Origin: a virus
Lineage: Duplodnaviria; Heunggongvirae; Uroviricota; Caudoviricetes
Virus record (IMG/VR): IMGVR_UViG_2645727991_000020
Direction: 5' to 3' (one strand)
DNA: 17,248 nt
Part shown: positions 1,218-17,248 of the stretch, one piece after another
Position numbering within the stretch: the first letter of the stretch is position 1
Layout: every line of letters begins with the position of its first letter
The notes under the pieces: model-generated
The model's database searches: none
Told to the model about the DNA's origin: nothing
What the model saw: only the letters and a program-made list of their open reading frames with translations
Translations under genes and position numbers: made by a program

Positions 1218-1290
1218 TGCATTACGAACTGCAGGATATTATATGGGATAATATTCTGCAGTTTATTGGGGCTGTATTTTAAAAAGGTGT

Positions 1291-2622
1291 TTATTTTGAG
1301 TGAATTATCACCTTGTTTTTTCCGGTTCTTTTGGCTTGATATAACGCTTTATCGGCATTGACTAACATTTCAGATGGGCTGAGATTATTCTCTTTTGAAG
1401 TAAAGCAACCAATGCTGACAGTTATTTTCTCAGGTCCATGCGATAATAATTTTTCCGAGCATTGCTCTTCAATGTTTTTTCTGATTCGCTCTGCAATTGA
1501 TAGCAAGAGCTTTTGAGTATTACCTTTAATGATAATACCGAACTCCTCACCGCCTAAGCGCCCTAATACATCCTCTTTCCTGATGGATTTTTTTATTATT
1601 CTGGTAACCATTACTATGACTTGATCACCCATATGATGCCCCCATTTGTCATTGATGCTTTTGAAACTGTCAATATCTAACATTATTACTGAGAAATCAT
1701 GGTGTTTTGATATATTCTTCAATGAGTCAATAAAGTATCTTCTATTGTATGTATTCGTTAGTGGATCATGAATTGCCATATGATTAGCATGATTTAATTT
1801 CCTGAAAACATAATACATGAGTGTTGAAATGATATAAATCATTGATATCAATTCAAGAAATTTTGTCATGTACCATGCAGGATGGGATTTATCAATAAAA
1901 TACAATAAAATTAGATTATTGCATACTGACACTATACTAATAAGTATTATACACAACCATATTTTTGAGTAATTACGTATGCTGATGCATGAGCTGATAA
2001 GTAATACAAGCCAAAATACTGATATTATTTTGGTATACACGATATTCCACGTCGGCAAATGACGATTCAGCGAGTATTGTATAATATTAAGGCTATATTT
2101 TATATTGTCACTGCTTAGATTTTTTGCTACAAACGGAGTAATAAAAAGAATTAATATTGACAAAACAACAATTATTATGTTTCTTTTATCTTCTAAAACA
2201 CTTTTATTTTTAACATTGGTGGAATAAACAGCCAGAAAGATTATAGATATAAAGCTGAACTGACGGAATAGATAATATATTGCGATATCATTTGATTTCT
2301 GATAGATTGTAGATAAATCGTTACCTAACGGAGATAAAGAAATAATAGCCACTTCTAATAAATAATACGTGTTGCTCAAAAACGCGAATGAAAGAATTAA
2401 GAGATAACTTTGTCTCTGATTAGAAACATAGTAAAGCAATAGAAAAATAAAAATCATCAGGTTTATGAAAAAAAGCCCAATAATGAAAATACTATAACTT
2501 ATTTGTGTTGTTTGTGTTATGTATATTCCATTATTTTCATGCAGTAACAAAAATATAATAGAGATGCATGAAAATAAAAAGATGAAGATTTTTATTTTTA
2601 TAGGTACCTGGTTGATAATCAT
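1291..2622 (-). CDS. membrane-anchored GGDEF-domain diguanylate cyclase with a multi-pass N-terminal domain
   Basis: 443-aa ORF. The C-terminal ~170 aa carry the GGDEF signature (RLGGEEFGI) with an RxxD I-site (RKED) shortly upstream. The N-terminal ~270 aa are strongly hydrophobic, consistent with about 6-8 transmembrane helices. The gene is visibly far more AT-rich than its flanks (GC not computed), so a long open frame here is unlikely by chance. Possibly related to prophage-borne DGCs such as DgcX of enteroaggregative E. coli, but I cannot confirm that from memory. Confidence 0.85.
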   Translation of the reverse strand: MIINQVPIKIKIFIFLFSCISIIFLLLHENNGIYITQTTQISYSIFIIGLFFINLMIFIFLLLYYVSNQRQSYLLILSFAFLSNTYYLLEVAIISLSPLGNDLSTIYQKSNDIAIYYLFRQFSFISIIFLAVYSTNVKNKSVLEDKRNIIIVVLSILILFITPFVAKNLSSDNIKYSLNIIQYSLNRHLPTWNIVYTKIISVFWLVLLISSCISIRNYSKIWLCIILISIVSVCNNLILLYFIDKSHPAWYMTKFLELISMIYIISTLMYYVFRKLNHANHMAIHDPLTNTYNRRYFIDSLKNISKHHDFSVIMLDIDSFKSINDKWGHHMGDQVIVMVTRIIKKSIRKEDVLGRLGGEEFGIIIKGNTQKLLLSIAERIRKNIEEQCSEKLLSHGPEKITVSIGCFTSKENNLSPSEMLVNADKALYQAKRTGKNKVIIHSK

Positions 2623-2872
2623 GTACGCACCTGAGAATGATATATATATAATATGTATCGCTACAAATAACGATAATTTCTTACTGGTGATAGTATACTA
2701 TTATTCTGGTTAATCGCTGTCAAATTGATGATTTTGGTTAGTATTGCAATAGCGAAGAGTTTGATCCGGTAAGACTGGCTAGGCAAGGCTATACCAAAAA
2801 ATCAGTGTAGGTTCAGAAAACGATGCACCATACAATCATCAATAATTTCAAATTGTCCATTGTGCATAAATC

Positions 2873-2915
2873 ATAAAGAAAACCGCAGCACGTCGTATGC
2901 AAGAACGTGCTGCGG
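2873..2915 (-). terminator. putative rho-independent terminator (minus strand)
   Basis: Perfect 11-bp inverted repeat ccgcagcacgt / acgtgctgcgg (2883-2893 / 2905-2915) with an 11-nt loop. On the minus strand it is followed by TTTTCTTT (plus 2873-2880). Confidence 0.45.
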
Positions 2916-3156
2916 TTGGCTGGTGAACTTCCGATAGTGCGGGTGTTGAATGATTTCCAGCTGCTACCGATTTTACATATTTTTGCCTGAGAGGATTTGA
3001 ACCGCCTCCACAGACTCTACATCACAGATAACCACTGTCACGAGGACTGTTAGTGCTGTGAGTTCAACGGGGCGATGTACGCTACCTTTAATCAAGAGGG
3101 AGAGGTACGTTGCTAAGATGAGTTTATATTCATCAACTAAGTGCAGATCAGCGAAT

Positions 3157-3200
3157 AACTAAAACTTGGCTGTCTGTGACAGGAACATCGATTGACAGCC
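3157..3200 (-). terminator. possible terminator hairpin downstream of the 1,182-aa gene
   Basis: Inverted repeat ggctgtc (3168-3174) / gacagcc (3194-3200) about 30 bp past the stop codon, followed on the minus strand by a weak U-rich tract (AAGUUUUAGUU). Weaker than the 2883-2915 hairpin. Confidence 0.3.
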
Positions 3201-3226
3201 AGTTTCTCCACATTTAGGTGTTTAGA

Positions 3227-6200
3227 TTAATCATCCTCTCCAATATTTAGATTGCTGATAACCTGTGCAGCTTCGTGGTCATAGCCAACCGCTAAATCTC
3301 TTAAGGTAACGGCGAATCGCTGAAAACCAGCGTTTTCCACTTCTTCTGCTTTTGCCCGGAACTGGTCAGCTAGCTCTCTCTCAGGTTTTCCTGTTGGATC
3401 AACACAATAAACACCTCGTGAGTTGTAGGCTCCTGTCATGTAGCCCCTGCGCATACTCTCAGCATCTCGATCGTTGAGAGCAGCTGCGACCTCTCGGTTT
3501 ATCCACAAGCCATTCGGATCGGAGGGAGTATAAATCAAGACTTCACCAACTTTGCTGAGTGCAACGTCCAGGTGACCTGATGCCGTAGAACCCTCCTTAA
3601 CTTTCTGAAGCCATTCAGTAAAGCGTTCTCCGTTGAACGTCCCATTTGATTGGCTTCCTGGCGGTGTCTTCCAGTTGTACAAAAGAGTCCAGGCATTTTT
3701 TGCGATTGCTTTCAATTCATCTGTTGGTTCACTTGTCATATTGTCTTCTTTGTCAGAACGATAAATGAGTTGGATTACTTCGCAGAAAAATTCTGGATCA
3801 TTAGCCATTTTATTCTCAAGGAACTTAGGCACAGCATCTTGGTGACCATCGAGCAATGGAAGGTAAGCCCACTCGATCTGAAAAAGATTATCCGGATTCA
3901 CTTTGGGATCAGTCTGAAGAAATTGGATAAGGGTAGTTATGTTGTAACCATCCATGTTGGAGCTAGATTCGTTAGTTGAAGTGGCAGCAAGCAAAGCGCG
4001 GATACACTGTTCAGTATCGATTGGCTGCTTTGTCTGATGCATCCTGCACAGGCAATTGATTGCCGCAAGTGGTCTGCCATGATCAATCAGCTTATCGATG
4101 GCACTAGTAAGATCACCTTCACCCAGGTCAGGATTTGCATCGGTGCGAGCCCAATATTCGTTCTCGGAAGCTTGAGGATAATGAGAGACTCGGGTCCAGG
4201 TCTCCTTGTTAAAAGGCAGATAAGCAAAGAATTGGCCTAACTGTTCAGGAGTCCAGTCAGCTTTATCCAGATTGTCGAACCACTCCCAGCCTTTGAGATA
4301 GAAACGCTTCCAAATAAAAGCGCTTACCAATGCCTTATACTTATTTTCTTTTGTATTGAGGAAACGGGGCAAAAGAAGTTTTTCGAACACATCATCGTTG
4401 ATAGTGCCGAGTACACTTCCTATTTGATGGGGCGCAGAAACGTGATCTGCAAATCGAATAACGCCTTCTGCGCCATCTTGCCTAAGAATTTCTGATATTG
4501 CGGATTCGCGCCTTGATTCGAGTTTATTTCTCCGTTCTTCCCAATCGCCATTTTCTAAGTAAAGATCAAAATCTCGATTTGAAAAAAGGTGCTGATATAA
4601 GTTGAATGGATTGGTAGGTGCCAGTTGCTCGGCAACATTTTCGATTTTGGTCAGCAGATCATCAGGTAAAGCCCAATTAGCATTAGAGAATCGCCGATGT
4701 TTATTTGCGAATCGATGAAGATGATCCCAAATTACAACTCGCTGCTCTTCATTAAGACAATTAATTGTTTCCGAAGAGAGGTGCTTAAGAAGATGTTCGA
4801 AAGCAGGAGATGGAAGGCTATCAAAATTATCAATCAACAAGGTAAGGCGTTCGATATCTTCTCCAGCGTTTTTGACGGCAAGCTCAGCATAAAAAGATGT
4901 CTGCAACCAGTAATCCTGATTAGTCACTTTGCTTTCCCAATCATCTGGGATTATTCGGCGCCAAGAGGGCTTGTGTGACCCAGAAGAGGTTTGATGGTGA
5001 CCGGGTAGAAGCTGGACGAGTAAATTCCAGGCAATGTCAGGCCATTCCTGCAAGATGACGTTGACTGCAACTTTTCGTTTTTCTATAGATGCCAGCGTTT
5101 GCGGAAACCACGGTAATAATATAGTAGTAAGCGAGTTAGATGGTCGATTAGCCCACTTGCCCCCAGGATCGTGGCTGGCAAGTTCGGCCAGTACAACACA
5201 GACGCGTACTAGGTATTGCTCATCCCAGGCTAATTCTTCTAGAGCCCATAGCAGTCCTGTCAGATAATTACCACCAGTGATACCATTTACTTCTTGAGAA
5301 AAAAGCTCATCAAATACACAAGGAGTCTGACGCATTGCCTTCTCAACTGCATCAAGAAATTTTGCAGGAGCTGCTTCAGCCAAAGTTGGTAGCAAACCGT
5401 TTAGGCTACCCCATAAAACCCAGTTTGCATCAGTCAAAATTGTATGTATTGCGACGTTAACGGAAGTTTCAGCATTCCCCTGAGAGCAGTTAACGCAAAC
5501 CTCTGGCCGACTCCCGATTATGGCTAAACCCTCTGCTATACCTTGTCGCAGCGTGGATGAAAACTTCAGCACCTTACCATGAATACTAGCAGCGTAACGC
5601 TCTTCAGCAGGTAATTCGAAAGCAGGGTCTGGCTCTTTGAGTACGGAAATCGCGGAAGACTTAAACAATTCAAGATTCTGATCAAAAATGCGGGATCCAA
5701 GAAGACTCCATAGCTCCATTCGATTTGTTACTTTCCAAATGCCGTTTTTTAGGGACAAAGGACTGTCTGGGCTATGTAAAATCTCTCGAGCCTTCCTTAG
5801 CCATTCGTCATAGCTGATACCAAGCAATTGGGTTAGTACATTTCGGTCACACTCATTTTTATCATTCCATTGCCCAATCAACACTGCTAAGGCTAAATAA
5901 GAGGCATCTGGGTGGTGAGTCCAGTCGGTTTTGACTACCGGTTGTACTAACCTCAACTTCTCAGGTATTTCAGCAATAACCCTTTGTTTGAAAACATCTA
6001 AAAGATCTTCAGGTAGCTTACTTGAAATGATAGTGCCAGCATCTTTATTCCAAGTTTGTACGATATCAACTATCCGCGACCAAACCCACTGAGGATACTG
6101 TTGATGGAATTGCGCTATGTGGGAGTGCAGCAAAGAAAGGACGACGCCTGATTCATTACCCAGATCGTACCCTAGTAAATGGAAATGGTTCAAAAAGTCA

Positions 6201-6775
6201 TAAAGCTCATCGTTTGTTAAATCGTTCCCACTGTTTGCCATCTTCAGATGAAACTGGATGGTCTCCAGTTTCTCAGTACTTTTAGGCGGGCTGAACTTGG
6301 CTTTTTGAACGTTCCTCAAAAATTCATCGACTGTTTTTGTGTGTCTAGCCTGATTCAATAACCAGAGCACATTGTGTGTATCGGTCGAACTGAGCGGACC
6401 GGTGATCAGTGCAATAACATCCTTGTTCTTGGTAAACAAGTCAGGATTGTTGAAATCGTTCCAAGCAGCCTGTATAACTTCCCCAAGTATCGCATTACCT
6501 TGCGTAAATGAAATAGAATGCTTTATTTGTCCTAATAGCTTCCGTTTTTCATTTCTGTTGAAATCTTTAACAACGACGATCAAGTCGTCGGTATCAAAAC
6601 CATCAATCTTGCCCTGGAGATTTATCTCCACTATGGGCCAACAAGGAAGACAAGGTGCATTACCGCCTGTTAGCATTAGAGCAACAAAAGACGCTTGGAC
6701 ATGTGCTTCAAAATGAACACCGCCTCCGCCTGTAGAAAAAGGATTACTCAAATTTTTTTTATTTGTCATTAACAA
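3227..6775 (-). CDS. large hypothetical protein (~1,180 aa), function unknown; candidate phage-defence or effector cargo
   Basis: Uninterrupted 3.5-kb ORF. The track start at 6775 is TTG; the first ATG is at 6769 (MTNKKNLSNPF...). Stop TAA at 3227-3229. I found no Walker A GxxxxGK[ST] and no other catalytic signature I can name. The N-terminus has a Gly-rich loop (STGGGGVHFEAH), a CxxC (CLPC) and an acidic-hydrophobic strand (GFDTDDLIVVVKD); a second CxxC (CVNC) lies near residue 430; the remainder is Trp/Leu-rich and probably helical. Product is unassigned. Confidence 0.85.
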   Translation of the reverse strand: MLMTNKKNLSNPFSTGGGGVHFEAHVQASFVALMLTGGNAPCLPCWPIVEINLQGKIDGFDTDDLIVVVKDFNRNEKRKLLGQIKHSISFTQGNAILGEVIQAAWNDFNNPDLFTKNKDVIALITGPLSSTDTHNVLWLLNQARHTKTVDEFLRNVQKAKFSPPKSTEKLETIQFHLKMANSGNDLTNDELYDFLNHFHLLGYDLGNESGVVLSLLHSHIAQFHQQYPQWVWSRIVDIVQTWNKDAGTIISSKLPEDLLDVFKQRVIAEIPEKLRLVQPVVKTDWTHHPDASYLALAVLIGQWNDKNECDRNVLTQLLGISYDEWLRKAREILHSPDSPLSLKNGIWKVTNRMELWSLLGSRIFDQNLELFKSSAISVLKEPDPAFELPAEERYAASIHGKVLKFSSTLRQGIAEGLAIIGSRPEVCVNCSQGNAETSVNVAIHTILTDANWVLWGSLNGLLPTLAEAAPAKFLDAVEKAMRQTPCVFDELFSQEVNGITGGNYLTGLLWALEELAWDEQYLVRVCVVLAELASHDPGGKWANRPSNSLTTILLPWFPQTLASIEKRKVAVNVILQEWPDIAWNLLVQLLPGHHQTSSGSHKPSWRRIIPDDWESKVTNQDYWLQTSFYAELAVKNAGEDIERLTLLIDNFDSLPSPAFEHLLKHLSSETINCLNEEQRVVIWDHLHRFANKHRRFSNANWALPDDLLTKIENVAEQLAPTNPFNLYQHLFSNRDFDLYLENGDWEERRNKLESRRESAISEILRQDGAEGVIRFADHVSAPHQIGSVLGTINDDVFEKLLLPRFLNTKENKYKALVSAFIWKRFYLKGWEWFDNLDKADWTPEQLGQFFAYLPFNKETWTRVSHYPQASENEYWARTDANPDLGEGDLTSAIDKLIDHGRPLAAINCLCRMHQTKQPIDTEQCIRALLAATSTNESSSNMDGYNITTLIQFLQTDPKVNPDNLFQIEWAYLPLLDGHQDAVPKFLENKMANDPEFFCEVIQLIYRSDKEDNMTSEPTDELKAIAKNAWTLLYNWKTPPGSQSNGTFNGERFTEWLQKVKEGSTASGHLDVALSKVGEVLIYTPSDPNGLWINREVAAALNDRDAESMRRGYMTGAYNSRGVYCVDPTGKPERELADQFRAKAEEVENAGFQRFAVTLRDLAVGYDHEAAQVISNLNIGEDD

Positions 6776-6914
6776 TCACATCCACATTTTGATTACGAAT
6801 AGATGAAAAAGAAGAGCACTCATACTTCAGAACTTATTCCACCTATATCTTTTAAAGACACTGTTATGCCTAGCATTTACGTAGATTAGCTAGCTCTCGG
6901 GTAATGACTCCAAC

Positions 6915-7418
6915 TTACTGATAGTGTTTTATGTTCAGATAATGCCCGATGACCTTGTCATGCAACTCCACCGATTTTGAGAACGACAGTGACTTCCGTC
7001 CCAGCCTTGCCAGATGTTGTCTCAGATTCAGATTATGTCGCTCAATGCGCTGCGTATATCGCTTGCTGATAACGTGCAGCTTTCCCTTCAGGCGTGATTC
7101 ATACAGCGGCCAGCCATCCGTCATCCATACCACGACCTCAAAGGCCGACAGCAGGCTCAGAAGACGCTCCAGTGTGGCCAGAGTGCGTTCACCGAAGACG
7201 TGCGCCACAACCGTCCTCCGTATCCTGTCATACGCGTAAAACAGCCAGCGCTGACGTGATTTAGCACCGACGTAGCCCCACTGTTCGTCCATTTCAGCGC
7301 AGACAATCACATCACTGCCCGGTTGTATGCGCGAGGTTACCGACTGCGGCCTGAGTTTTTTAAGTGACGTAAAACCGTGTTGAGGCCAACGCCCATAATG
7401 CGTGCACTGGCGCGACAT
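6915..7418 (-). CDS. insB: IS1 transposase InsB (expressed natively as an InsAB' frameshift fusion)
   Basis: 167-aa product ...[58 protein letters not shown]... matches IS1 InsB with a few substitutions. It overlaps the 3' end of insA as expected for programmed -1 frameshifting. Confidence 0.9.
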
Positions 7419-7612
7419 CCGACGCCATTCATGGCCATATCAATGATTTTCTGGTGCGTACCGGGCTGAGAGGCGGTGTAAGTGAACTGTAGTTGCCATG
7501 TTTTACGGCAATGAGAGCAGAGATAGCGCTGATGTCCGGCAGTGCTTTTGCCGTTACGCACCACGCCTTCAGTAGCGGAGCAGGAAGGACATCTGATGGA
7601 AATGGAAGCCAC
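7337..7612 (-). CDS. insA: IS1 protein InsA (zinc-finger DNA-binding regulator)
   Basis: 91-aa product [68 protein letters not shown]... matches IS1 InsA. Confidence 0.9.
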
Positions 7613-7667
7613 GCAAGCACCTTAAAATCACCATCATACACTAAATCAGTAAGTTGGCAGCATTACC

Positions 7668-9283
7668 AAATCATCAATAACGAAAGCTGGTTATGTTCTC
7701 CGTTAAGCGTTATCGGTACTGGCAGAGACGATAAAGACCAGTATCTCATTCTTCGCTGGCTGTCGTTTGGTTCTGAAACGCCGACAACCGCTGCCATTCC
7801 ACTGGCTGATATTGGTGAACGTGAAGGATGGCGCACACTTAAAGCTGGTGGGGTAAATGTCACGACCAAAAGCAGCCTCAGAGCAATACTGGCAGACTGG
7901 CTACAACGCAGTGGCTCTCGTGAATTGTGGCGTGTTGCTCATGCCACTGGCTGGCAATGCGGAGCGTACATCATGCCTGATGGGGAAATCATCGGAACAC
8001 CTGAAAATCCTGTGCTGTTCAGCGGGAGAAGCTCAGCCGCAGCCGGATATACCGTCTCAGGGAGCGCGAAAAGCTGGCGTGATAACGTGGCGCGTCTGGC
8101 CTTTGGTAACTATTCAATGATGACCGGGATCGGCGCAGCACTGGCAGCGCCATTGATTGGGCTGGTGGGCGCTGACGGGTTCGGCATTCATTTCTATGAG
8201 CAGTCGAGCGCAGGTAAGACCACCACGGCAAACGTGGCGAGCAGCTTATACGGCAACCCTGATTTACTGCGGCTGACGTGGTACGGAACCGCGCTGGGGC
8301 TGGCAAATGAGGCCGCCGCCCACAATGACGGACTAATGCCGCTTGATGAAGTTGGTCAGGGCGCTGATCCTGTCAGCGTTTCACAGTCTGCCTATGCGTT
8401 ATTTAACGGTGTAGGGAAACTGCAAGGCGCTAAAGATGGTGGAAACCGGGATCTAAAACGCTGGCGTACAGTGGCAATCAGCACCGGAGAAATGGATTTA
8501 GAAACATTTATCGCTACTTCCGGGCGAAAAACCAAAGCCGGGCAACTGGTGCGACTGCTGAATATTCCGTTGAGTAAAGCAGTACGCTTTCACGATTACC
8601 AGAACGGAAAACAGCACGCAGACGCACTGAAAGACGCTTACCAGCATCACCACGGCGCAGCCGGGCGTGAGTGGATTAAATGGCTGGCAGACCACCAGCA
8701 ACAGGCTATTAAAACCGTTCGTGATTGCGAAAGCAGATGGAGAAACCTGATCCCATCCGATTATGGTGAGCAGGTTCACCGTGTAGCCGCGCGATTTGCC
8801 ATTCTGGAGGCCGCATTGCTGTTAGGCGAGGTTGTAACAGGCTGGGATGCTCAGACATGCCGTGATGCGATACAGCACAGCTATAACGCATGGTTGCGCG
8901 AGTTCGGCACAGGTAACAAAGAACATCAGCAGATTATTGAACAAACGGAGGCATTTCTTAATGCCTATGGGCTTAGCCGTTTTGCACCATTTCCATACAG
9001 CCCGGCAGATTTGCCCATCAAAGATTTAGCCGGATACCGTCAGCGTGGAGAACATGACGAAAGCCCAATGATTTTCTACACATTCCCGGCCACATTTGAA
9101 AAGGAGATCGCATGTGGTTTCAACGCAAAACAGTTTGCTGAAGTGTTGAAAAAAGCCGGGATGCTAACCCCACCAAACAGCGGTCGTGGATACCAAAGAA
9201 AATCACCACGTATTCAGGGACGACAAATAAACGTTTATGTACTCAATTACCAGCCAGGAGATTATAACTCATCTGAAGAATGA
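7668..9283 (+). CDS. P-loop NTPase replication protein of mobile-element type (tentatively DUF927 family), 5'-truncated by IS1; probable pseudogene
   Basis: The track ORF 7493..9283 begins inside IS1. Native sequence starts at the IS1 boundary (7668) with no in-frame ATG until 7973 (IMPDGEIIG), yet the intervening 100 codons read as genuine protein. Walker A-like YEQSSAGKTTT and Walker B-like GLMPLDEVGQ are present. The gene ends about 20 bp before iteron cluster A. Confidence 0.6.
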
Positions 9284-9301: not shown

Positions 9302-9422
9302 AAAAGGTGTTGGTTCAGTTGGTTCAGTTGGTTCAATTTATAAAGGGTATTGTTTTATAAGGATTTTATTCTTTTTATTGAACCAACACTGAACCAACAA
9401 CACGGTATTTTGAACCAACACA
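9302..9422. repeat. iteron cluster A (origin-like)
   Basis: Three tandem 9-bp repeats ttggttcag / ttggttcag / ttggttcaa (about 9310-9336), an AT-rich spacer of roughly 40 bp, then three inverted copies tgaaccaaca (9379-9420). Confidence 0.7.
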
Positions 9423-9469
9423 ATGTGACTGAATTGATGCGCACAACACCTGGCTGGCATCAGAGAGTG

Positions 9470-9546
9470 TTTTACGAGACTTTCGTAAAATCCTGTGTAC
9501 AAGGGCGTGACGTTTTTGAAAGTGAGCACTACGAAATTTTCGTAGT
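9470..9546. promoter_or_regulatory. pair of TACGA-N5-TCGTA palindromes (candidate operator sites)
   Basis: ttttacgaGACTTtcgtaaaa (9470-9490) and actacgaaATTTtcgtagt (9528-9546) share identical half-sites TACGA / TCGTA with 5-bp spacers, centres about 57 bp apart. Confidence 0.4.
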
Positions 9547-9737
9547 TCAAAAAACAGCCTCTGAGAAGTTGTTATGCCTGTTCAGCAAACCATCCGCATA
9601 GCTGATCGCGAATCAAATTACCAATGGAGCCAGAAGCAAGGGCAGAACTGAAAAGCGCCTGCCGTGAAGAGTAATGCGACACCATAAATATAGTTTTTAG
9701 AGTCCATAAAAAACCTGTCAAAACCTGACACACAGAA

Positions 9738-9773
9738 CGACGCCACCAGCTACTGAGCGGTGGCATTTTTTTG
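9738..9773 (+). terminator. putative rho-independent terminator (plus strand)
   Basis: GC-rich stem gccacc (9742-9747) / ggtggc (9759-9764) followed by a run of seven T (9766-9772). It sits between the iteron/operator region and the downstream operon. Confidence 0.45.
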
Positions 9774-9867
9774 TGCTATTTGTTTCATATTCTGCAATTA
9801 CGATGATGAATATTGCGATTTGTGAAACTATAATAACTGTTGTTTTATACAGTTATAAGGGGGCGTT

Positions 9868-10029
9868 ATGGCTATTTCAGTAAAGCCGGTATTGATAAGT
9901 GAGAAGCAAATGGAAGCGATAAAGAAAATTCAGGAAGAGCAGCGTAAAAAATCAGGAATTGGAGTAGCGCCAACTCTGCATGAAATTGCACGAGGGTTAA
10001 TAGATAAGGCGCTGGCAGGCTGTATGTGA
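9868..10029 (+). CDS. small hypothetical protein (53 aa), possibly a ribbon-helix-helix-like DNA-binding protein
   Basis: Not in the supplied track (below its length cut-off). ATG at 9868 with a strong Shine-Dalgarno AAGGGGG 6 nt upstream; product MAISVKPVLISEKQMEAIKKIQEEQRKKSGIGVAPTLHEIARGLIDKALAGCM; TGA at 10027-10029. It sits 16 bp upstream of the four-gene operon. The RHH assignment is a guess from the strand-then-helix pattern. Confidence 0.45.
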   Translation: MAISVKPVLISEKQMEAIKKIQEEQRKKSGIGVAPTLHEIARGLIDKALAGCM

Positions 10030-10045
10030 AAATGGATGGCATCGC

Positions 10046-10507
10046 ATGGAACTAAAATTTATTGATAACCCTGTGCGATTACAGGCCTTTCTTAACGAGC
10101 CAGGCAATACCGAAAATATTGTTGAGCCGGGGCACACGTACTACATCAAGCCTGATGCGGTATATCTCGGCATCTACGAAGGATTAGTGCTGGCTGGCGT
10201 TCATGAAGTGCGTAACTTCTGGCATAGCGTTGTTGAATGCCATGCGGTGTACGACCCCGGATTCCGTGGTGAATATGCACTGCAAGGGCATCGATTATTC
10301 TGCAAATGGCTTCTCGAAAACTCACCATTCCTTAACAGCATCACTATGGTTCCTGACACCACGAAATATGGACGGGCAATTATCCGTTTGCTTGGCGCTA
10401 CCCGTGTTGGTCACCTTGATGATGCTTATATCAGATGTGGTAAACCCGTCGGCGTAACGCTTTATCAGTTAACTCGGCAACAATATAAGGAATTCAGCGA
10501 ATGTTAA
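10046..10507 (+). CDS. hypothetical protein (153 aa), first gene of a translationally coupled operon
   Basis: ATG at 10046; its stop (TAA 10505-10507) overlaps the next start (ATGTTAA). No motif recognised. Confidence 0.7.
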   Translation: MELKFIDNPVRLQAFLNEPGNTENIVEPGHTYYIKPDAVYLGIYEGLVLAGVHEVRNFWHSVVECHAVYDPGFRGEYALQGHRLFCKWLLENSPFLNSITMVPDTTKYGRAIIRLLGATRVGHLDDAYIRCGKPVGVTLYQLTRQQYKEFSEC

Positions 10508-11178
10508 TTACCCATATAGCTCATAAACATCTCAATCGTGCCGTATACGAAAAAGGCGGTGATGGTGGTGCCTCTAAAGCTCAGGCGAAGGCCCAGCAGC
10601 AGGCAATTGATTTGCAGCGCGAGCAGTGGAATACGGTGATGAATAATCTCAAGCCGTATGCAGAAGTCGGATTGCCTGCTTTACAACAACTGCAAGGACT
10701 GATGACTCTGGAAGGGCAGAATAAAGCCGCGAATGATTTCTTTGGTTCTGGTTTATATAAAACACAGGCAGATCAGGCCCGTTATCAGAACCTTGTCTCA
10801 GCAGAAGCTACCGGGGGGCTTGGCTCAACAGCTACCAGTAACCAGTTATCTTCCATTGCGCCCATGCTTTATAACAATTGGCTCAGTGGGCAAATGCAAA
10901 ATTATGGAAACCTGCTAAATGTCGGGATGAATGCGGCATCAGGGCAGGCAACAGCAGGGCAAAACTACGCCAATAATACCGGGCAACTCTTGCAGGGGCT
11001 TGGCGCTATTCGTGCAGGTCAGGCGCAGCAGCCATCCAGTCTTGCGCGTGGTATTGGTGGGGCGGCATCAGGCGCTTTAGCGGGTGCGCAACTTGGTTCC
11101 GTTGTTCCGGGTATAGGTAATGTCGCCGGGGCTATTGGTGGTGGGCTTATTGGTCTTGTTGGGGGGCTTGGATTCTAA
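10501..11178 (+). CDS. hypothetical protein (225 aa) with Gly-rich hydrophobic C-terminus; possible virion ejection/injection protein (P22 gp7-like by size and position)
   Basis: Start overlaps the upstream stop; C-terminus GIGGAASGALAGAQLGSVVPGIGNVAGAIGGGLIGLVGGLGF is membrane-active-like; Gln/Ala-rich low-complexity middle. The homology call is inference only. Confidence 0.7.
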   Translation: MLITHIAHKHLNRAVYEKGGDGGASKAQAKAQQQAIDLQREQWNTVMNNLKPYAEVGLPALQQLQGLMTLEGQNKAANDFFGSGLYKTQADQARYQNLVSAEATGGLGSTATSNQLSSIAPMLYNNWLSGQMQNYGNLLNVGMNAASGQATAGQNYANNTGQLLQGLGAIRAGQAQQPSSLARGIGGAASGALAGAQLGSVVPGIGNVAGAIGGGLIGLVGGLGF

Positions 11179-12599
11179 TGGCGACATGGCAACTTGGCGG
11201 GCTGCCTAGCATGGCACCGCAAAATGATAATGCTCCTCGTTCTTCCGTTCCTCAGCCTGTGCAGTATCAGCAGCACCCAAACGTAGGTTTAATGGCGCTA
11301 CAGGGGCTAAGAGGCGTTGCTGAGATTAATCAGCAGGCACGTCAACAACAGCGTAAAGCAGAGTTTCAGAAAGCATATGCCGGGGCTTTTGAGTCTGGAG
11401 ACAGAAACAAAATGCGCAGTCTTATTTCTGAGTATCCAGAAGAATTTGAAAGCGTTCAGAAAGGGATGGGCTTTATTGATGACGACCAGAGAAATTCTAT
11501 TGGTCATCTTGCGACTAGTGCTCAAATCGCATCTTCGCTCGGAACTGGGGCATTTGGAAAATTCATAGCAGATAACGAAGATGAAATGCGTCGCTTGGGA
11601 ATTTCTCCTGAGTCTGTTGCCGAAATGCATGTTAATGATCCACAGGGATTCCAGCGGCTTGCTGGTAGTATGGCACTGTTTTCTCTCGGTCATGAGAAGT
11701 ATTTCGATATCAAAGATCAAATGGAAGGTCGGGATATTGAGCGTGGCAAGTTGGCAGAGACAATCCGCAGCAATCAGGCTGGCGAAGCACTTCAGGCGAG
11801 AGGGCAGGATATTAGCCGAGCAAATGCGTTAACGTCAGCATATGCACCAACAGCAGCAATGCAGAATTACAATCAGTACGCTCAAATGTTAAAGGCGGAT
11901 CCAGAGGGGGCGGCGGCATTTGCGGCAGCGGCTGGAATTAATACAAACGCCAAAAAATTAATGAGTGTTAGAGAAAACGATGATGGCACTGTCACAAAAT
12001 ACTACACAGACGGAAGTGAAGAGCAGGGAAAACTAAACCAGCCAATATCTGGAGATGGGTTTCGTCCAATAGCTTTGCCAACAGCCCAAAAGATCATGGA
12101 AAAGTCGCCAGAAGGGGCTAAAAAAGCTGCTGGATTTGCATACAGGGTTAGGGATGCTCTTGATTCAATAGATACACTGAAAGACCAGCTTAGCCCACAG
12201 CGAGTGGCGATCATTAATAATGCTTTGGGTAATGGGACGCTGGCTAACTTAACGCTCAGCCCAACAGAGCAGCAATACGTTGTTAATGCTAATGACGCAA
12301 TAATGGCAATACTCCGTCAGGAAACAGGGGCAGCTATCGCACCTGCTGAAATGTCAAAATATTATCAAATGTATTTCCCTCAGCCTGGCGACTCCACAAA
12401 AACCATTGATACCAAGCGCCGGAAGATGGAAAACCAGTTCAATTCGCTGAAAGCTGCTTCTGGTCGAGCTTATGATGCTTTGCGGGTTATTTCAGCAGTT
12501 GACAGAGGAACTTCTTCTTCGTCGCAGACATTGCCGCAATCTGAGCAGGTATCACAGCCAGCAGCCAGCAGTAACTTTTCTTCACTATGGGGTGATTAA
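11178..12599 (+). CDS. hypothetical protein (473 aa); possible virion ejection protein (P22 gp20-like by size and position)
   Basis: TAATG overlap with the upstream gene; hydrophilic, Ala/Gln/Glu-rich. The size matches my recollection of gp20 at about 471 aa. Inference only. Confidence 0.7.
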   Translation: MATWQLGGLPSMAPQNDNAPRSSVPQPVQYQQHPNVGLMALQGLRGVAEINQQARQQQRKAEFQKAYAGAFESGDRNKMRSLISEYPEEFESVQKGMGFIDDDQRNSIGHLATSAQIASSLGTGAFGKFIADNEDEMRRLGISPESVAEMHVNDPQGFQRLAGSMALFSLGHEKYFDIKDQMEGRDIERGKLAETIRSNQAGEALQARGQDISRANALTSAYAPTAAMQNYNQYAQMLKADPEGAAAFAAAAGINTNAKKLMSVRENDDGTVTKYYTDGSEEQGKLNQPISGDGFRPIALPTAQKIMEKSPEGAKKAAGFAYRVRDALDSIDTLKDQLSPQRVAIINNALGNGTLANLTLSPTEQQYVVNANDAIMAILRQETGAAIAPAEMSKYYQMYFPQPGDSTKTIDTKRRKMENQFNSLKAASGRAYDALRVISAVDRGTSSSSQTLPQSEQVSQPAASSNFSSLWGD

Positions 12600-14704
12600 T
12601 GGCTAAAGCATGGAAAGATGTTATCGCCTCTCCACAGTATCAGGCGTTAGCACCAGAACAAAAAGCGCAGGCTCAGGAGCAATACTTCAATGAAGTCGTT
12701 GCCCCGCAAGCCGGAGAAAGTGTAGAGCAGGCTAAGCAGGCTTTTTATGCTGCCTATCCACTACCATCAACGAATGAAATAGACCGATCCCAATCAGCAA
12801 CTCAAAATATTCAACATACATCATCTGATAATTCTCTTGCGTCAGGGTATGCAAAGTTAGCTACTCAGCAAAGAGAGGGGCTTGAGCGTTCAGCAGAACA
12901 GGGAGCCAGTCTTGGGGCTGCGATGCGCGATGCTATAACAGGCGAAAGCCGAATGACTCCAGAGATGGAGAGACTGCAAAATGTCACCTCTGCCCCAGAA
13001 TTGAACTCACTAAGCATGGATGCCCTAAAGGCTGGATGGTCTCAACTTTTCGGCTCTGACGCGTCTCAGGAAAAGATTCTTCAGGGAATGGGGGCGACAT
13101 TAAGGCAGGATGAGAAGGGGAATACTATCGTTTCTCTGCCATCAGGTGATTATGCCCTGAACAAGCCGGGTTTATCACCGCAAGACCTGACTTCGTTTCT
13201 TGCTAATGCGTTGGCGTTTACACCAGTGGGCAGGGCTGGAACGGTGCTTGGTGCCATAGGAAAATCAGCAGCTACAGATTTAGCACTACAGGGAGCCACC
13301 AGCCTTGCTGGTGGAGAAGATATTGATCCGTTACAAACGGTAATTTCTGCTGGCATTGGTGGTATTGGTAAGGGGCTGGAAAATACAGCGAGTGCGGTTT
13401 CGAGGGCTGTTCGTGGTGATATGTCGCCTGAAGCAAAGGCTGCTGTCGACTTTGCATCGGAAAGAAATCTGCCGTTAATGACCAGTGACATGCTGAAAGA
13501 TAAAACCTTTATGCAGAGTCAGGCTCAGACATTAGGCGAAAGAGTTCCTTTTTTTGGAACCGGTAAGAATCGGCTGAATCAACAACAAGCACGAGAAAAT
13601 TTAGTCAGAACATTTAGCGATGGTCTGGGTGGCATTTCTGATAAACAGCTTTATGAATCTGCGACTAAAGGGCAACAAAAATTCATTGAGGCAGCAGGAA
13701 AGCGATATAACCGCATAATTGACGCTATGGGGGATACCCCTGTCGATCTCTCAAACACGGTAAAAGCTATCGACAATCAGATTGCCGTGTTAAGCCGCCC
13801 GGGCAAATCTCAGGATAGAGCCGCGGTAAAAGTCTTGCAGCAATTTAAAGACGATATCACCAGCGGACCAAATGACCTGCGTCTGGCGAGGGAAAACAGA
13901 ACCGATCTTCGAAAGCGATTTATGGCGTCATCTGACACTGTTGATAAAGATACGCTCCAGAAAGCCAGCGATATTATCTACAAGGCATATACGGCGGATA
14001 TGAAAAAAGCCGTAGCCAAAAATCTTGGAGCAGACGAAGCCATTAATATGGCAAGGGTTGATCGCTCATGGTCTAAATTCAATGATATGATGGGAAGAAC
14101 GCGCGTTCAAAAGGCAATAGCCAGCGGCAAGGCCACGCCTGAGGATGTAACAAAACTCGTTTTTAGCCAAAGCCCATCAGAACGTTCTCAGCTTTACAGG
14201 CTTCTGGATGACAATGGTAGGCAAAACGCACGAGCAGCCATAGTTCAGAATGCTGTAGATAAGGCGACTGATCCGTCTGGAAATATCAGTGTTGAGAAGT
14301 TTATTAATGCGTTACACCGGAACAGGAAGCAATCAGCAACTTTCTTTAAAGGCGTACATGGAAAGGAACTGGACGGCGTTATTAAATACCTCAACGATAC
14401 AAGACACGCGGCAAAAGCGAACGTTCAAAACTTAAATGGTCAGCAGCTTTATGGATTGTTAGTTGGTGGTGGCATCATAAACGCAGCAGTATTAGCGGGG
14501 ATGCTAAAAACGGCTGCGTTTGTTGTTCCTGCTGCTGGTGCCGTAGGCGGAGCAGCGAAGGCATACGAAAGCCCTGTTATACGAAATGCCTTGTTACGTC
14601 TGGCAAATACGCCAAAAGGTAGCACAGCATATGACAGAGCGATCAGTACGGTCACACAATCGCTCACCAGAGTCGCACAGGCATCACAAAAAGAAGCTCA
14701 ATAA
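12599..14704 (+). CDS. hypothetical protein (701 aa) with C-terminal hydrophobic segment; possible virion ejection protein (P22 gp16-like by position)
   Basis: TAATG overlap with the upstream gene; a hydrophobic stretch LYGLLVGGGIINAAVLAGMLKTAAFVVPAAGAVGGAA lies near the C-terminus; stop TAA at 14702-14704 is followed by a hairpin and T-run. Confidence 0.7.
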   Translation: MAKAWKDVIASPQYQALAPEQKAQAQEQYFNEVVAPQAGESVEQAKQAFYAAYPLPSTNEIDRSQSATQNIQHTSSDNSLASGYAKLATQQREGLERSAEQGASLGAAMRDAITGESRMTPEMERLQNVTSAPELNSLSMDALKAGWSQLFGSDASQEKILQGMGATLRQDEKGNTIVSLPSGDYALNKPGLSPQDLTSFLANALAFTPVGRAGTVLGAIGKSAATDLALQGATSLAGGEDIDPLQTVISAGIGGIGKGLENTASAVSRAVRGDMSPEAKAAVDFASERNLPLMTSDMLKDKTFMQSQAQTLGERVPFFGTGKNRLNQQQARENLVRTFSDGLGGISDKQLYESATKGQQKFIEAAGKRYNRIIDAMGDTPVDLSNTVKAIDNQIAVLSRPGKSQDRAAVKVLQQFKDDITSGPNDLRLARENRTDLRKRFMASSDTVDKDTLQKASDIIYKAYTADMKKAVAKNLGADEAINMARVDRSWSKFNDMMGRTRVQKAIASGKATPEDVTKLVFSQSPSERSQLYRLLDDNGRQNARAAIVQNAVDKATDPSGNISVEKFINALHRNRKQSATFFKGVHGKELDGVIKYLNDTRHAAKANVQNLNGQQLYGLLVGGGIINAAVLAGMLKTAAFVVPAAGAVGGAAKAYESPVIRNALLRLANTPKGSTAYDRAISTVTQSLTRVAQASQKEAQ

Positions 14705-14708
14705 CTGG

Positions 14709-14731
14709 TTAGCCATGGATGGCTAATTTTT
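14709..14731. terminator. putative terminator shared by the convergent operon and membrane-protein gene
   Basis: Palindrome ttagccat-gg-atggctaa (14709-14726) followed by TTTTT (14727-14731), directly after the stop of the 701-aa gene and overlapping the stop of the minus-strand gene. Confidence 0.4.
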
Positions 14732-15142
14732 GTTCTTTGCTCTCATCCATAGGTAAAGAAGGGAAAGAACAAGACAAAAAACAGAGAATAGATAACCTAC
14801 CTCATATGGTGCGCCAAAAAAATTAGCTATTGATACGGGCAAAAAAGCTGAGGCGATCAAAATTGAAAGGCAAAAAATAAGCCCAGTAATATAGTTTATT
14901 AAATTCTTAAATGAGAAACGTTTTGCTTGATTTACGGTCTTAACGAACGATCGCTTAACGACGGATAAAAGCAAATAGATGGCGACAGTTGCTAATGCCC
15001 CTTTCCACCAGTCTGGATATAGTTTTGCGACAATCAGACCAAGGAAAACCATGATGACAGCCTGAGCATTCACACCAACCCTCCCTTTAGCTTTGTTTAG
15101 AATGGCAATCATCATATATCCAAGACATGGCATTTGGTACAT
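14723..15142 (-). CDS. small integral membrane protein (about 115-139 aa); candidate superinfection-exclusion-type moron
   Basis: Three to four hydrophobic helices (VIMVFLGLIVAKL, ATVAIYLLLSVV, ITGLIFCLSILIASAFL, LFSVFCLVLSLLYLW). The likelier start is an in-frame GTG at 15073, preceded by AGGGAGG, rather than the track ATG at 15142. Convergent with the operon. Confidence 0.6.
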   Translation of the reverse strand: MYQMPCLGYMMIAILNKAKGRVGVNAQAVIMVFLGLIVAKLYPDWWKGALATVAIYLLLSVVKRSFVKTVNQAKRFSFKNLINYITGLIFCLSILIASAFLPVSIANFFGAPYEVGYLFSVFCLVLSLLYLWMRAKNKN

Positions 15143-16106
15143 AGCTTGGGTCGGGATTTCAAATCCGATCCCCGTTGATGGGGCCGTTACAGTACGCGCA
15201 TATCCGCTTTATGTGAAACAGGAAGATTTTTCTGATATCACTGCCACAGCAAAACACCAATTTCGAGACAAGTACGCGCGCGAGGGGTATCAGTTGCAAA
15301 AAATTTTGCAACTACGTCCGACCAGTATGCACACGATGGCGGAGGGATACCATAAAACTGTTCTCTACATGAGACAGAGTGGTGGTGATGTGTTGATTAT
15401 CGGCGTATATGCGCACAGGACGCGCTATGACGATGTTTTATGCGGGTACACCAATCACATGTATCTGGTGTGATAAATCGCGTTACATGACCTCTCATGT
15501 TGTACTGGTGGTTATCACGACGTTCTGAATCTGGCCTTTGCCTGGTATTTTGCGACAAGTACGCGCGCGTAGCATCGAAATAATCGGATGGCGTATGCTG
15601 CTGGTAATATGAAGACCGATAGCATTAACCGTAAGGAGAAAGACTTCTCGATAACGGCAAGGGGGCTGAATTGCGAGGCGAGATTAAGCAACTGTCTTGA
15701 ACGTAAAAATCATGGAGCAACATGATGGTACGATTCATTCCATTCTTCGTTCTTTCTGAGCATTGCGTTCAGGCTTAGTCAAAATTAGTGTTGCGAGCGG
15801 ACCTATTAGTAATTGTTGGTGCGATGCGTCTGTTATGGATTGTTATGGTTGTGGCAGGCCTGATTAATATCCAGTATGACCACCAGCTATGAGAGGCCAC
15901 CTCAGTGGTTCGCAGTTGCAGGTTTGCACTCAGGTTCGCAGGGTTTTGGCTACTTTCACGTGCGAACCTGCAGAATTGCAAAGGACAACTAAGTCCTCTG
16001 GCCAACTCCCGGTTTATGAGCGACACAGTCCGCCTGGCGCATCGTTTTCGTCGAGTGCGCCCATCAGCTTGTCCATGGACTATCCACCACTCGATATTAA
16101 AGCTAA

Positions 16107-16292
16107 TCATTGGTTGCCAGCCCGCGAATCAAGTTTGTTCTGGATCCAAGCTTCAACCTCCTCAAGCGACCATCTAGCTGATCTACCAATTTTAACTGGC
16201 TGTGGAAACGTGCCCGTCTTAACCCATGAGTAGATTGCCGTTTTCTTGAAGCCCGTTCTGAGCATGACTTCGCTTAATTTGATAAGGCGCAT
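16107..16292 (-). CDS. alpA: AlpA-family phage regulatory protein (MerR-like DNA-binding / excisionase-type)
   Basis: 61-aa product MRLIKLSEVMLRTGFKKTAIYSWVKTGTFPQPVKIGRSARWSLEEVEAWIQNKL has the AlpA helix-turn-helix signature. A strong SD (GAGGAG) lies upstream of the ATG at 16292. Confidence 0.85.
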   Translation of the reverse strand: MRLIKLSEVMLRTGFKKTAIYSWVKTGTFPQPVKIGRSARWSLEEVEAWIQNKLDSRAGNQ

Positions 16293-16341
16293 AGAGGCTC
16301 CTCTGCTTTAGATTAAGCATAGTGACAATCTGGCTTTGGGT

Positions 16342-16376
16342 GGTATCCAAAAGCGAGGTATCCATGTTGGTATCCA
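16342..16376. promoter_or_regulatory. three direct GGTATCCA repeats in the alpA upstream / divergent promoter region
   Basis: GGTATCCA at 16342-16349, 16357-16364 and 16369-16376 (spacing 15 and 12 bp), 50-85 bp upstream of the alpA start. A second direct pair TTCACGCA lies near 16455-16475. Confidence 0.35.
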
Positions 16377-16543
16377 CCAAAACGCTGTTTACCAAAAAGT
16401 TACCACCGGAACAGGACATTTTGAGCTGTAACTTAACACATAGCATATGGAGTTCACGCATAGACTTCACGCACAACGGCTCTGGCCAGTGAAGAATCAC
16501 CCTGGCTAGCAATATAATGCCGATCACCATCAGAGGGGAATCC

Positions 16544-16735
16544 ATGACACCACGAGAAATCGAGCTGCTGACCATTGCCAAGCTGGAGCATGGCGGCCAC
16601 CAGCTCAGCCCGGCAGAACTGCGGGAATTAAGGCGCCAGCTGGCAGAGGGCCCTGTAATAGCCAGGCGGTACCGCGAAATGATGACCAGCCCCGCATATC
16701 GCTGGAGCAAACCAGCGCCGCTCCGTGCGCGGTGA
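16544..16735 (+). CDS. small hypothetical protein (63 aa), divergent from alpA
   Basis: ATG at 16544 with SD AGAGGGG upstream and a TATAAT-like hexamer at 16513-16518; product MTPREIELLTIAKLEHGGHQLSPAELRELRRQLAEGPVIARRYREMMTSPAYRWSKPAPLRAR. The track start at 16517 is an in-frame upstream ATG without an SD. No family recognised. Confidence 0.45.
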   Translation: MTPREIELLTIAKLEHGGHQLSPAELRELRRQLAEGPVIARRYREMMTSPAYRWSKPAPLRAR

Positions 16736-16807
16736 GCAGCACCTAACCAGCACTAGACAAGCCCTGTGCTGGTGGATGTCCCTCATAATTAGCGGTTTTT
16801 AAACGGC

Positions 16808-16936
16808 GTGTTGGTTCACGGCCTCTTTTTGTTGGTTCAAAAATGGGGTGTGTTGGTTCACTTTTTGCGAATAATTCTTTTAAAAACAATACTCTTTACA
16901 AATTGAACCAACTGAACCAACTGAACCAACACCTTT
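16808..16936. repeat. iteron cluster B (origin-like), inverted relative to cluster A
   Basis: Three loosely spaced ttggttca copies (16811-16858), an AT-rich spacer, then three tandem 9-bp tgaaccaac repeats (about 16904-16930). The reverse complement of 16901-16938 is identical to 9302-9339 over about 38 bp, with further similarity beyond. Confidence 0.7.
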
Positions 16937-16966
16937 TTGCTTATCTATATAATCTGAGAGGCAGAA

Positions 16967-17248
16967 ATGATAAGGGACAGGAAAGCTGAAGAGCTGGAGT
17001 CAAAAGGGCTATACCGGAGAGCTGCCGCACGATGGATGGAAGTCATGCTGTTATGCACCGAGGACGATGATCGGGAATGGATAAAGCGCCGCCGTGAAAC
17101 GTGTCTGGAGAACGTGAAGCGCCCGCCCGTGAAGGTTGAGGAATTTGGCGACCTGCATAAAGCTGTTACCGAAACGCAACACCGCATGGGGATAGCGCAA
17201 CCGAACGGTAACGCCTTCCGGTTAAATGGCGGCAAGAGGCAAAGGTAG
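16967..17248 (+). CDS. probable PerC-family transcriptional regulator (93 aa)
   Basis: Product MIRDRKAEELESKGLYRRAAARWMEVM... fits the N-terminal pattern I associate with PerC/Pch regulators (AEELE.KG..RRAA.RW). SD GAGAGG and a TATAAT lie just upstream; the stop TAG is the last three bases of the window. Family call from memory only. Confidence 0.5.
   Translation: MIRDRKAEELESKGLYRRAAARWMEVMLLCTEDDDREWIKRRRETCLENVKRPPVKVEEFGDLHKAVTETQHRMGIAQPNGNAFRLNGGKRQR

Follow-up and report, generated by a model that had tools for sequence, protein, structure and literature searches.

In the virus record IMGVR_UViG_2645727991_000020 (Caudoviricetes), two arrays of short repeats (iterons) lie 7.4 kb apart in inverted orientation, and the locus raises the question of whether they represent two replication origins, one origin in two pieces, an origin with a separate regulatory array, or the traces of a rearrangement. 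The whole stretch of 17,248 nt that was analysed, referred to below as the window, contains a decayed copy of a phage-inducible chromosomal island (PICI) related to EcCIMP1 of Escherichia coli. Comparison with intact islands and with the loci of related initiator genes led us to the interpretation, to which we assign a probability of about 0.7, that the two arrays, modules A and B, are the two halves of one replication origin of an EcCIMP1-like PICI, which was opened by the insertion of cargo genes.

The iteron word was counted exactly in the window, and the background was estimated from 200 shuffles. The word TTGGTTCA occurred 13 times, compared with 0.85 +/- 0.84 copies expected and a maximum of no more than 4 in any shuffle (n = 200), and 12 of the 13 copies fell in two clusters, namely module A (9309-9419) and module B (16811-16930). 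A search allowing one mismatch within the window gave additional matches at the background level only. In module A, copies on the plus strand start at 9310, 9319, and 9328 (9-bp spacing), followed by copies on the minus strand at 9379, 9390, and 9411; in module B, plus-strand copies at 16811, 16832, and 16853 (21-bp spacing) precede minus-strand copies at 16904, 16913, and 16922 (9-bp spacing). Since a G precedes all 12 module copies, the iteron unit is the 9-bp GTTGGTTCA. The opposed sets of each module are separated by a 43-bp spacer with an AT content of 84% in A and 79% in B, whereas that of the window is 55%. Spacer A is the least stable 40-bp stretch of the island (z = 2.9), and spacer B ranks among the least stable 2% of the window. 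Each module is the reverse complement of the other: the arms 9302-9366 and 16873-16937 (65 nt) are 91% complementary and include an exact run of 38 nt, whereas the sides with the loose iterons have diverged. Module A starts 26 nt past the TGA (9281-9283) of a truncated initiator gene, and module B ends 36 nt ahead of the ATG of a perC-family gene at 16967. No convincing DnaA, IHF, or Dam sites were detected in or near the modules, and Rfam and tRNA scans revealed nothing inside the feature formed by A and B. An earlier description made from the sequence alone (the sequence-only reading) had reported two such modules, AT-rich spacers of about 40 bp, a shared reverse-complementary core of about 38 bp with diverged flanks, and the positions of A 3′ of a truncated replication gene and of B 5′ of a PerC-like gene; its coordinates and layout proved accurate, and we add that the replication gene was cut by IS1.

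The repeats of intact relatives were compared at 80 loci carrying initiator genes of 92-52% identity, fetched as one genome per species with 10-kb flanks; individual loci are cited below by their numbers (L). A repeated 8-mer array was located 3′ of the initiator stop codon in almost all 80 loci. A tight block, defined as at least two iterons at 9-bp spacing, was recognisable after the stop codon in 61 loci, and in 60 of these it started 22-47 nt past the stop. At least 10 iteron words were distinguished among the lineages, including GTTGGTTCA, GTTGTCTCA, GTCGGTTCA, ACGGGTTAC, GTGGGTTA, GTTGTCCC, TTATCCCA, TTGTACCA, GTCGGGTA, and AGTGTGTC, and both halves of a locus always used the same word. 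The sequence-only reading had taken the modules for origin elements; the position of the arrays next to the initiator in nearly all relatives, as well as the covariation of the word with the C-terminus of the initiator described below, strengthens that assignment. In addition, 26 of 77 loci carried a centre motif, CTGGCT[GA]G, which in 21 of these lies at +149 to +171 past the stop codon; the motif was present in 5.6% of background windows. This motif, (C)CTGGCTGG, lies between the halves, occurs also in the origin of an unrelated DUF5906 initiator (L089 8811-8822), and might be a priming or host-factor site. Three TTGGTTCA arrays were found within 6 kb of one contig of Yersinia pekkanenii (L025; relative positions -4555, +27, and +1208), which may belong to tandem or nested islands.

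Classification of the loci by the positions of their tight blocks revealed two forms of the origin. In the compact form, represented by 38 loci, two opposed tight blocks are located within 480 bp of each other with about 11 iteron words; the second tight block usually starts at +245 to +350, mostly at +252 to +261, and some of these loci show exactly the A-then-B orientation. In Erwinia piriflorinigrans, Enterobacter adelaidei, and many others, the array 3′ of the initiator gene thus forms one continuous block of about 300 bp. Its order is three tight iterons, an AT-rich spacer, three inverted loose iterons, and a centre with CCTGGCTGG, followed by more loose iterons, a spacer, three inverted tight iterons, and the sequence ‘cac..ttt.cttat.tata’. 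The origin is directly followed by perC in Enterobacter adelaidei, the only compact locus inspected for its next gene. The split form was recognised in 9 loci, including two E. coli islands, with Lonsdalea as a probable tenth; gaps between the halves were 0.45, 1.0, 2.1, 4.7, 6.7, 7.1, 7.4, and 8.9 kb. The outer flank of all A halves is the end of the helicase gene, and the B halves inspected share an outer flank resembling a -10 element. The break follows CCTGGCTGGCA in the E. coli islands and an additional degenerate iteron in the Rosenbergiella locus; the loose iterons of Serratia are arranged differently, and in Pantoea perC is on the A side. Because both halves are found undivided in 38 related loci, A and B are probably pre-existing halves and not duplicates generated by the separation. 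The proposal of the sequence-only reading that an insertion had placed genes between duplicated origin sequences therefore holds for the cargo between the halves and fails for the duplication.

The genes found in the gaps differ among the split loci. In E. coli the gap contains homologues of the P22-type proteins gp14 (DUF2824), gp7, gp20, and gp16 (window 10046-14704), in the same order as Kapi1_055-058 of the P22-like phage Kapi1; in Serratia (L031 12739-14946), a baseplate hub and a gpV-like spike with an Apex motif; in Cedecea (L047 12372-16770), a P4 Beta-family protein and an SLT protein; and in Rosenbergiella (L015 13299-18115), an SLT protein and Fic. These differences suggest that each satellite brings along ejection or spike proteins suited to its type of helper. 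A tandem GTAAGACAG was also noticed directly 5′ of the B half in Cedecea (L047 ~18401-18425), Rosenbergiella (L015 ~18760-18785), and Pantoea (L032 ~20555-20580), but was absent from the E. coli islands; another protein may bind there.

The origin layout was found in intact islands as well as in the decayed copy. The order of genes in an intact island is int, alpA, antA/B antirepressor, ash, small genes, the 918-aa TOPRIM/DUF927 initiator, module A, gp14/gp7/gp20/gp16-like genes, alpA_1 on the opposite strand, module B, and perC. Such islands are situated at thrW or between yicC and dinD, each site with its own integrase. EcCIMP1, the described representative, has a length of 19,963 bp, so that an intact element measures about 20 kb; it excises, circularises, and is transduced by Kapi1, and its origin and iterons are not mentioned in that paper (PMC11773190). 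The same layout of 6+6 iterons is present in the intact islands of strains 042, CFSAN061761, and MP1 (EcCIMP1), where the repeats are intergenic and not part of a coding sequence. Thus, the two-site state was not produced by the truncation seen in the window. The coordinates of all features are listed in Table 1.

Table 1. Coordinates of the origin halves and associated features in the window.
Feature	Position	Strand	Details
IS1	6900..7667	-	Left end of the island missing beyond it: integrase, alpA, antA/B, ash, and initiator codons up to ~381
Initiator 3′ remnant	7668..9283	+	Codons ~382-918 of 918; DUF927 helicase and C-terminal domain; zinc ribbon and TOPRIM primase gone
Predicted iteron-reading segment	9128..9280	+	Last 51 codons (aa 868-918); from covariation
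Module A, initiator-proximal half	9302..9422	+	Three tight GTTGGTTCA 9309-9335; spacer 9336-9378; inverted loose iterons 9379-9387, 9390-9398, 9411-9419
Centre motif CCTGGCTGGCA	9449..9459	+	Last conserved element of the A half; split directly after
Cargo between the halves	9460..16807	+	Small open reading frames, P22-type ejection genes, hypotheticals, alpA_1; Pfam and PHROG matches
Module B, distal half, mirror of A	16808..16937	-	Loose iterons 16811-16818, 16832-16839, 16853-16860; spacer 16861-16903; inverted tight block 16904-16930
Candidate perC -10, perfect TATAAT	16948..16953	+	17 nt beyond the tight block of B; no -35 match
perC-family gene	16967..17248	+	3′ of module B; Pfam PerC, E = 3.7e-30

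DNA with 99-99.9% identity that spans both modules and the intervening genes was found in 122 complete E. coli genomes. The IS1 of the window has 23-nt terminal inverted repeats at 6900-6922 and 7645-7667 and encodes a protein that matches Pfam DDE_Tnp_IS1; homology to the intact islands begins at 7668, right after it. There is no 9-bp target duplication around IS1 (6891-7676), and the junction is therefore a deletion or the result of IS1-mediated recombination rather than of a simple insertion. The cargo genes are also present in EcCIMP1; besides the ejection genes, the cargo comprises two hypothetical genes on the minus strand, about 1 kb that is unannotated in RefSeq, and alpA_1 (16107-16292, minus strand). 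The window copy thus resembles EcCIMP1 in gene order, in its near-identical sequence, and in a 6+6 layout split at the same places, and differs from it in the IS1 cut, in its gp16-like allele, and in the spacing of the loose iterons of module A. That spacing is polymorphic: it is 11/21 in the window (9379-9418), 042, Cedecea, and others, and 21/21 in EcCIMP1 (L086), where it is accompanied by a repeated caacacggtattttgaacc unit. The attributes of a PICI, namely int with alpA, induction by a helper, excision, and transfer, are known for EcCIMP1 from the literature. Lacking the primase, integrase, and alpA because of IS1, the window copy is a relic of an EcCIMP1-like island, and its sites can presumably be used only with an initiator supplied in trans by a related island. 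Kapi1, the helper, was found to have no iteron cluster and is thus apparently not a target of the initiator.

The inverted 65-nt, 91% repeats on both sides of the 7.4-kb segment could also be viewed as footprints or substrates of an inversion or another rearrangement of that segment, as the sequence-only reading had suggested. However, of 5,426 complete E. coli genomes, none covered a synthetic flipped junction to at least 80% and 363 carried the native junction; the best matches to the flipped junction covered 57%, as native A alone does. No invertase family was detected in Pfam and PHROG scans of the open reading frames in and beside the segment. Moreover, the repeats consist of iterons with a word that changes in step with the initiator, and in the 38 compact loci the halves are neighbours that are not inverted relative to each other. 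We therefore regard an inversion as very improbable and abandon it.

The full-length initiator protein of 918 aa (042, CFSAN061761, and MP1) contains Zn_Ribbon_Prim, Toprim_3, and DUF927, and the remnant in the window matches Pfam DUF927; the family comprises 10,089 cluster representatives at E <= 0.001. Residues 7-361 were aligned with residues 5-339 of the P4 alpha protein (33% identity, E = 2e-41), a region that spans the zinc ribbon and the TOPRIM primase, and residues 402-813 matched PDB entry 8tch (‘Pathogenicity island protein’, E = 1e-11) and, more weakly, 5dgk (‘Active helicase’). Judged by these matches, the initiator is a P4-alpha-type zinc-ribbon/TOPRIM primase fused to a DUF927 helicase of the type found in Rep of Staphylococcus aureus pathogenicity islands (SaPIs). 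The C-terminus showed no similarity to that of P4 alpha (hhalign probability 0.1%), and a single-sequence search with it gave only noise.

The part of the initiator that recognises the iterons could not be localised by sliding-window identity. A column-wise comparison over the 918-aa alignment was then made between 25 proteins associated with TTGGTTCA and 8 associated with TTGTCTCA, and only columns 891 and 893 separated the two classes. Residue 891 is R in the TTGGTTCA class and G or N in the TTGTCTCA class, while residue 893 is S in the former and V or T in the latter; the TTGTCTCA class mixes close relatives (83-88% identity) with distant ones (52-62%). The triplet R891-K892-S893 is encoded at 9197-9205 and is thus still present in the truncated gene of the window. 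Other triplets were paired with other words: AFT with GTTGTACCA, VLT with G(T/G)GGTTTCA, RK(S/T) in a different context with GTCGGTTCA, and KK(T/N) with GTCGGGT(C)A. From this covariation of word and triplet, the iteron reader is predicted to be the last ~50 residues of the protein.

The arrangement of the sites is conserved across genera to the exact base pair, with spacings of [9, 9, 51, 11, 21] in A and [21, 21, 51, 9, 9] in B; the latter are identical in 042, MP1, G749, and Cedecea. Between the window and Cedecea, 48/48 iteron bases of B are identical compared with 44/71 other bases, and A halves of different genera share 32/32 iteron bases and 22-33/45 others, so that 27-51% of the bases outside the iterons differ between genera. 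The iterons are evidently under selection. Spacer lengths across the initiator family centre on 43-45 bp, and their AT content is about 80%. A GC-rich spacer (34-36% AT) is present in the B half of some compact origins of the L006 type.

The island of E. coli G749 (L089 6305-10000 and 19001-19119) is a recombinant in which the same arms and cargo are combined with a DUF5906 initiator of 783 aa. The homology between G749 and the window begins at 9463, immediately past the centre motif. The gene of this initiator precedes an origin of its own, which has the same design and is built on the word CTGTACCA: a pair of tight iterons is followed by an AT-rich spacer, by inverted and loose iterons, and by a centre with ‘ttctggctgg’. 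About 1 kb with two small genes separates this half from a second one, in which loose copies precede an inverted tight pair, so that this origin is also split. The bipartite plan and its splitting are thus not peculiar to DUF927 initiators. In addition, G749 retains a complete orphan TTGGTTCA B half before perC, identical to that of the window at 48/48 iteron bases and 42/71 others. The orphan may be a relic of module exchange or a sign that B has a role at the downstream promoter.

Several points weigh against the interpretation of A and B as halves of one origin. A second module was missing from the ~10-kb flank of 14 loci, where it may be dispensable or lie further away. The GC-rich B spacers of the L006 type mean that B is not always a melting module, and the orphan in G749 shows that B can be retained where no cognate initiator is encoded in cis. 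On the simplest reading, the ancestral origin was compact and was opened at its centre several times; the preference for insertion into a compact origin over deletion from a split one is a matter of parsimony. As for the proposed reader of the iterons, the AlphaFold model of the last 179 residues, built from a shallow alignment, had a pLDDT (predicted local distance difference test) of 47 and gave only a helix-helix-hairpin pattern, and a profile of 34 C-terminal domains matched no solved structure in the PDB.

The loci with a single module are also consistent with A and B being two independent, complete origins that fire 7.4 kb apart. Each module alone fits the published definition of a SaPI or PICI origin (PMC9371898; PMC6092414), and both spacers, with equal length and high AT content, would melt easily. 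However, the pairing of A-type and B-type modules at a near-fixed distance in the 38 compact loci argues for one unit, and in compact origins of the L006/L012 type the GC-rich spacer means that B cannot be a stand-alone melting site. Independent origins are, on balance, unlikely.

A further possibility is that only A is the origin and B is a regulatory array, acting as an operator of perC, as an incA-like titration or handcuffing element of copy control, or as both. A TATAAT resembling a -10 element lies a short, conserved distance past the tight block of B, without a -35 (Table 1), and a similar ‘ttat.tata’ was observed after the B-type tight block in most loci inspected. A scan with consensus promoters detected no sigma-70 site near module A or B, which is evidence against this possibility and leaves the conserved -10-like hexamer as the basis of the promoter proposal. 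B also stays together with perC in decayed islands and, in G749, in the presence of another initiator; genomes that matched only the 64-nt arm proved to be such decayed islands retaining module B and not new contexts. On the other hand, an AT spacer of the same length as that of A and the mirror design would be superfluous in a pure operator or titration array, and in Pantoea L032 and its relatives perC follows A, while B is situated 9 kb away before another gene. The closest precedent with two sites is phage P4, in which crr is required for replication. An array of initiator sites away from the initiator gene, which could pair with the first array, is also known from plasmid P1 as the auxiliary incA type. 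B differs from incA in that it has an AT-rich spacer equal in length to that of A, mirrors A, and belongs with A to a conserved compact unit, whereas an incA-like array would have no unwinding element and would lower copy number. A purely regulatory B thus appears quite improbable.

In a comparison with known systems, the design and position of the modules corresponded to those of SaPI and PICI origins, and the two-site layout resembled that of P4. SaPI Rep is a self-loading helicase with a C-terminal winged helix that reads the iterons, and the SaPI ori, situated immediately 3′ of rep, consists of 6-12 iterons around an AT-rich centre (PMC9371898). The origins of Gram-negative PICIs are organised in the same way, and the pri-rep-ori of EcCICFT073 is functional (PMC6092414). 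The present origin shares with these the position 3′ of the initiator gene, the opposed iteron sets flanking AT-rich DNA, and the Rep-related helicase, and differs in its two mirror-image modules, which in the EcCIMP1 lineage are 7.4 kb and a set of cargo genes apart. The ori of EcCICFT073 is particularly similar, with 9-bp tandem CTGTCTACC, about 40 bp of AT-rich DNA, and inverted sets, ~230 bp in all, whereas its Pri-Rep has no sequence relation to the initiator of the window island.

P4 also has two cis sites kilobases apart that share an octamer-type iteron and carry tight blocks on opposite strands. Its crr lies directly 3′ of alpha and is composed of 9-bp tandem and inverted iterons, and its ori is located 4.7 kb from crr, beside an AlpA-family gene; ori and crr have been reported to cooperate. 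The likeness to ori and crr pointed out by the sequence-only reading therefore holds for the layout and for the primase, the N-terminal primase of the island initiator being homologous to alpha. It does not extend to the remainder of the three-part alpha-type initiator, since the helicase and the DNA-binding C-terminus of alpha are not homologous to those of the island protein, whose helicase is of the SaPI-Rep type. Other differences are that crr is formed by two 120-bp direct repeats and the proximal site of the window island by a single module, that the iteron word is TGTTCACC in P4 and GTTGGTTCA in the island, and that the island is a PICI with a P22-like helper and, unlike P4, is without sid, psu, and delta.

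Based on these comparisons and on published work with SaPI Rep and PICIs, the following mechanism can be proposed for two halves of one origin. The last ~50 residues of the initiator would read the 9-bp GTTGGTTCA through a motif around R891-K892-S893, and binding through this C-terminal domain would not require the host DnaA. The iteron-bound initiator would melt the 43-bp AT spacer and load itself as a helicase, and its TOPRIM domain would prime synthesis. In the EcCIMP1 lineage, ~7.35 kb of cargo, with P22-type ejection proteins and alpA_1, would have come between the halves and produced a two-site layout like that of P4. The separated halves probably act together by initiator-mediated contacts or as two initiation sites. 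In addition, the tight block of B lies at the place expected for a -35 element of the candidate perC promoter; bound initiator would overlap this promoter, and transcription may thereby be coupled to occupancy of the site.

A more far-reaching possibility, which we put forward tentatively and consider doubtful, is that the centre of the origin is a privileged slot for cargo and that the half-origins keep cooperating across kilobases. There are at least four kinds of breakpoints and at least two initiator families (DUF927 and DUF5906) among the split origins, and the slot is loaded with virion entry proteins that match the helper, namely P22-type ejection proteins, gpV spikes, or SLT proteins. 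If this were so, the series from compact to split origins would represent an evolutionary route to the ori/crr arrangement of P4, so far unexplained. Genes located in the gap might be amplified early or additionally when the island is induced, and the RKS-type triplet would serve as a simple, engineerable code that governs both iteron specificity and the cross-talk or incompatibility of co-resident satellites.

Satellite origins are known as one compact iteron block after the initiator gene, with the two-site P4 as the exception. To this, the present data add a widespread family of enterobacterial satellites with a mirror-image bipartite origin, either compact or separated by cargo; the two forms offer a natural series for testing the cooperation of half-origins at a distance. 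The bipartite mirror origin, its recurrent splitting with virion entry genes, and the code at 891-893 appear to be undescribed in the searchable literature. The likely DNA-reading residues are now located for a very large initiator family, which allows prediction of the satellites that could replicate each other’s origins, truncated relics included. An ejection or spike module of the helper type inside an origin is also relevant to the exploitation of P22-like and other helpers. The message of the window itself is modest, as it contains a decayed copy of a known island.

Several other elements were noted in the window. A 16-nt motif, GACAAGTACGCGCGCG, occurs twice (15268-15283 and 15554-15569) in the ~1 kb unannotated in RefSeq (roughly 15143-16107). 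A third copy is located just 3′ of perC in intact islands, and the motif also adjoins the B half in Serratia fonticola; further coordinates are L002 21630-21645, L054 13451-13466, and L089 17102-17117. A role in protein binding or packaging is conceivable. The part of the window to the left of IS1 is unrelated to the island, and a search with the leftmost 7.7 kb of the window showed only a mosaic of prophage remnants; positions 1-6775 were not found to 80% in one place in any complete E. coli genome. Tail fibre and tail-fibre assembly genes lie at 52-1217, with an Rfam IS009 match at 976-1174. They are followed on the minus strand by an AT-rich gene for a MASE4-GGDEF diguanylate cyclase (1291-2622) and by a gene for a protein of 1182 aa (3227-6775), which belongs to phrog_18693 and has no Pfam match.

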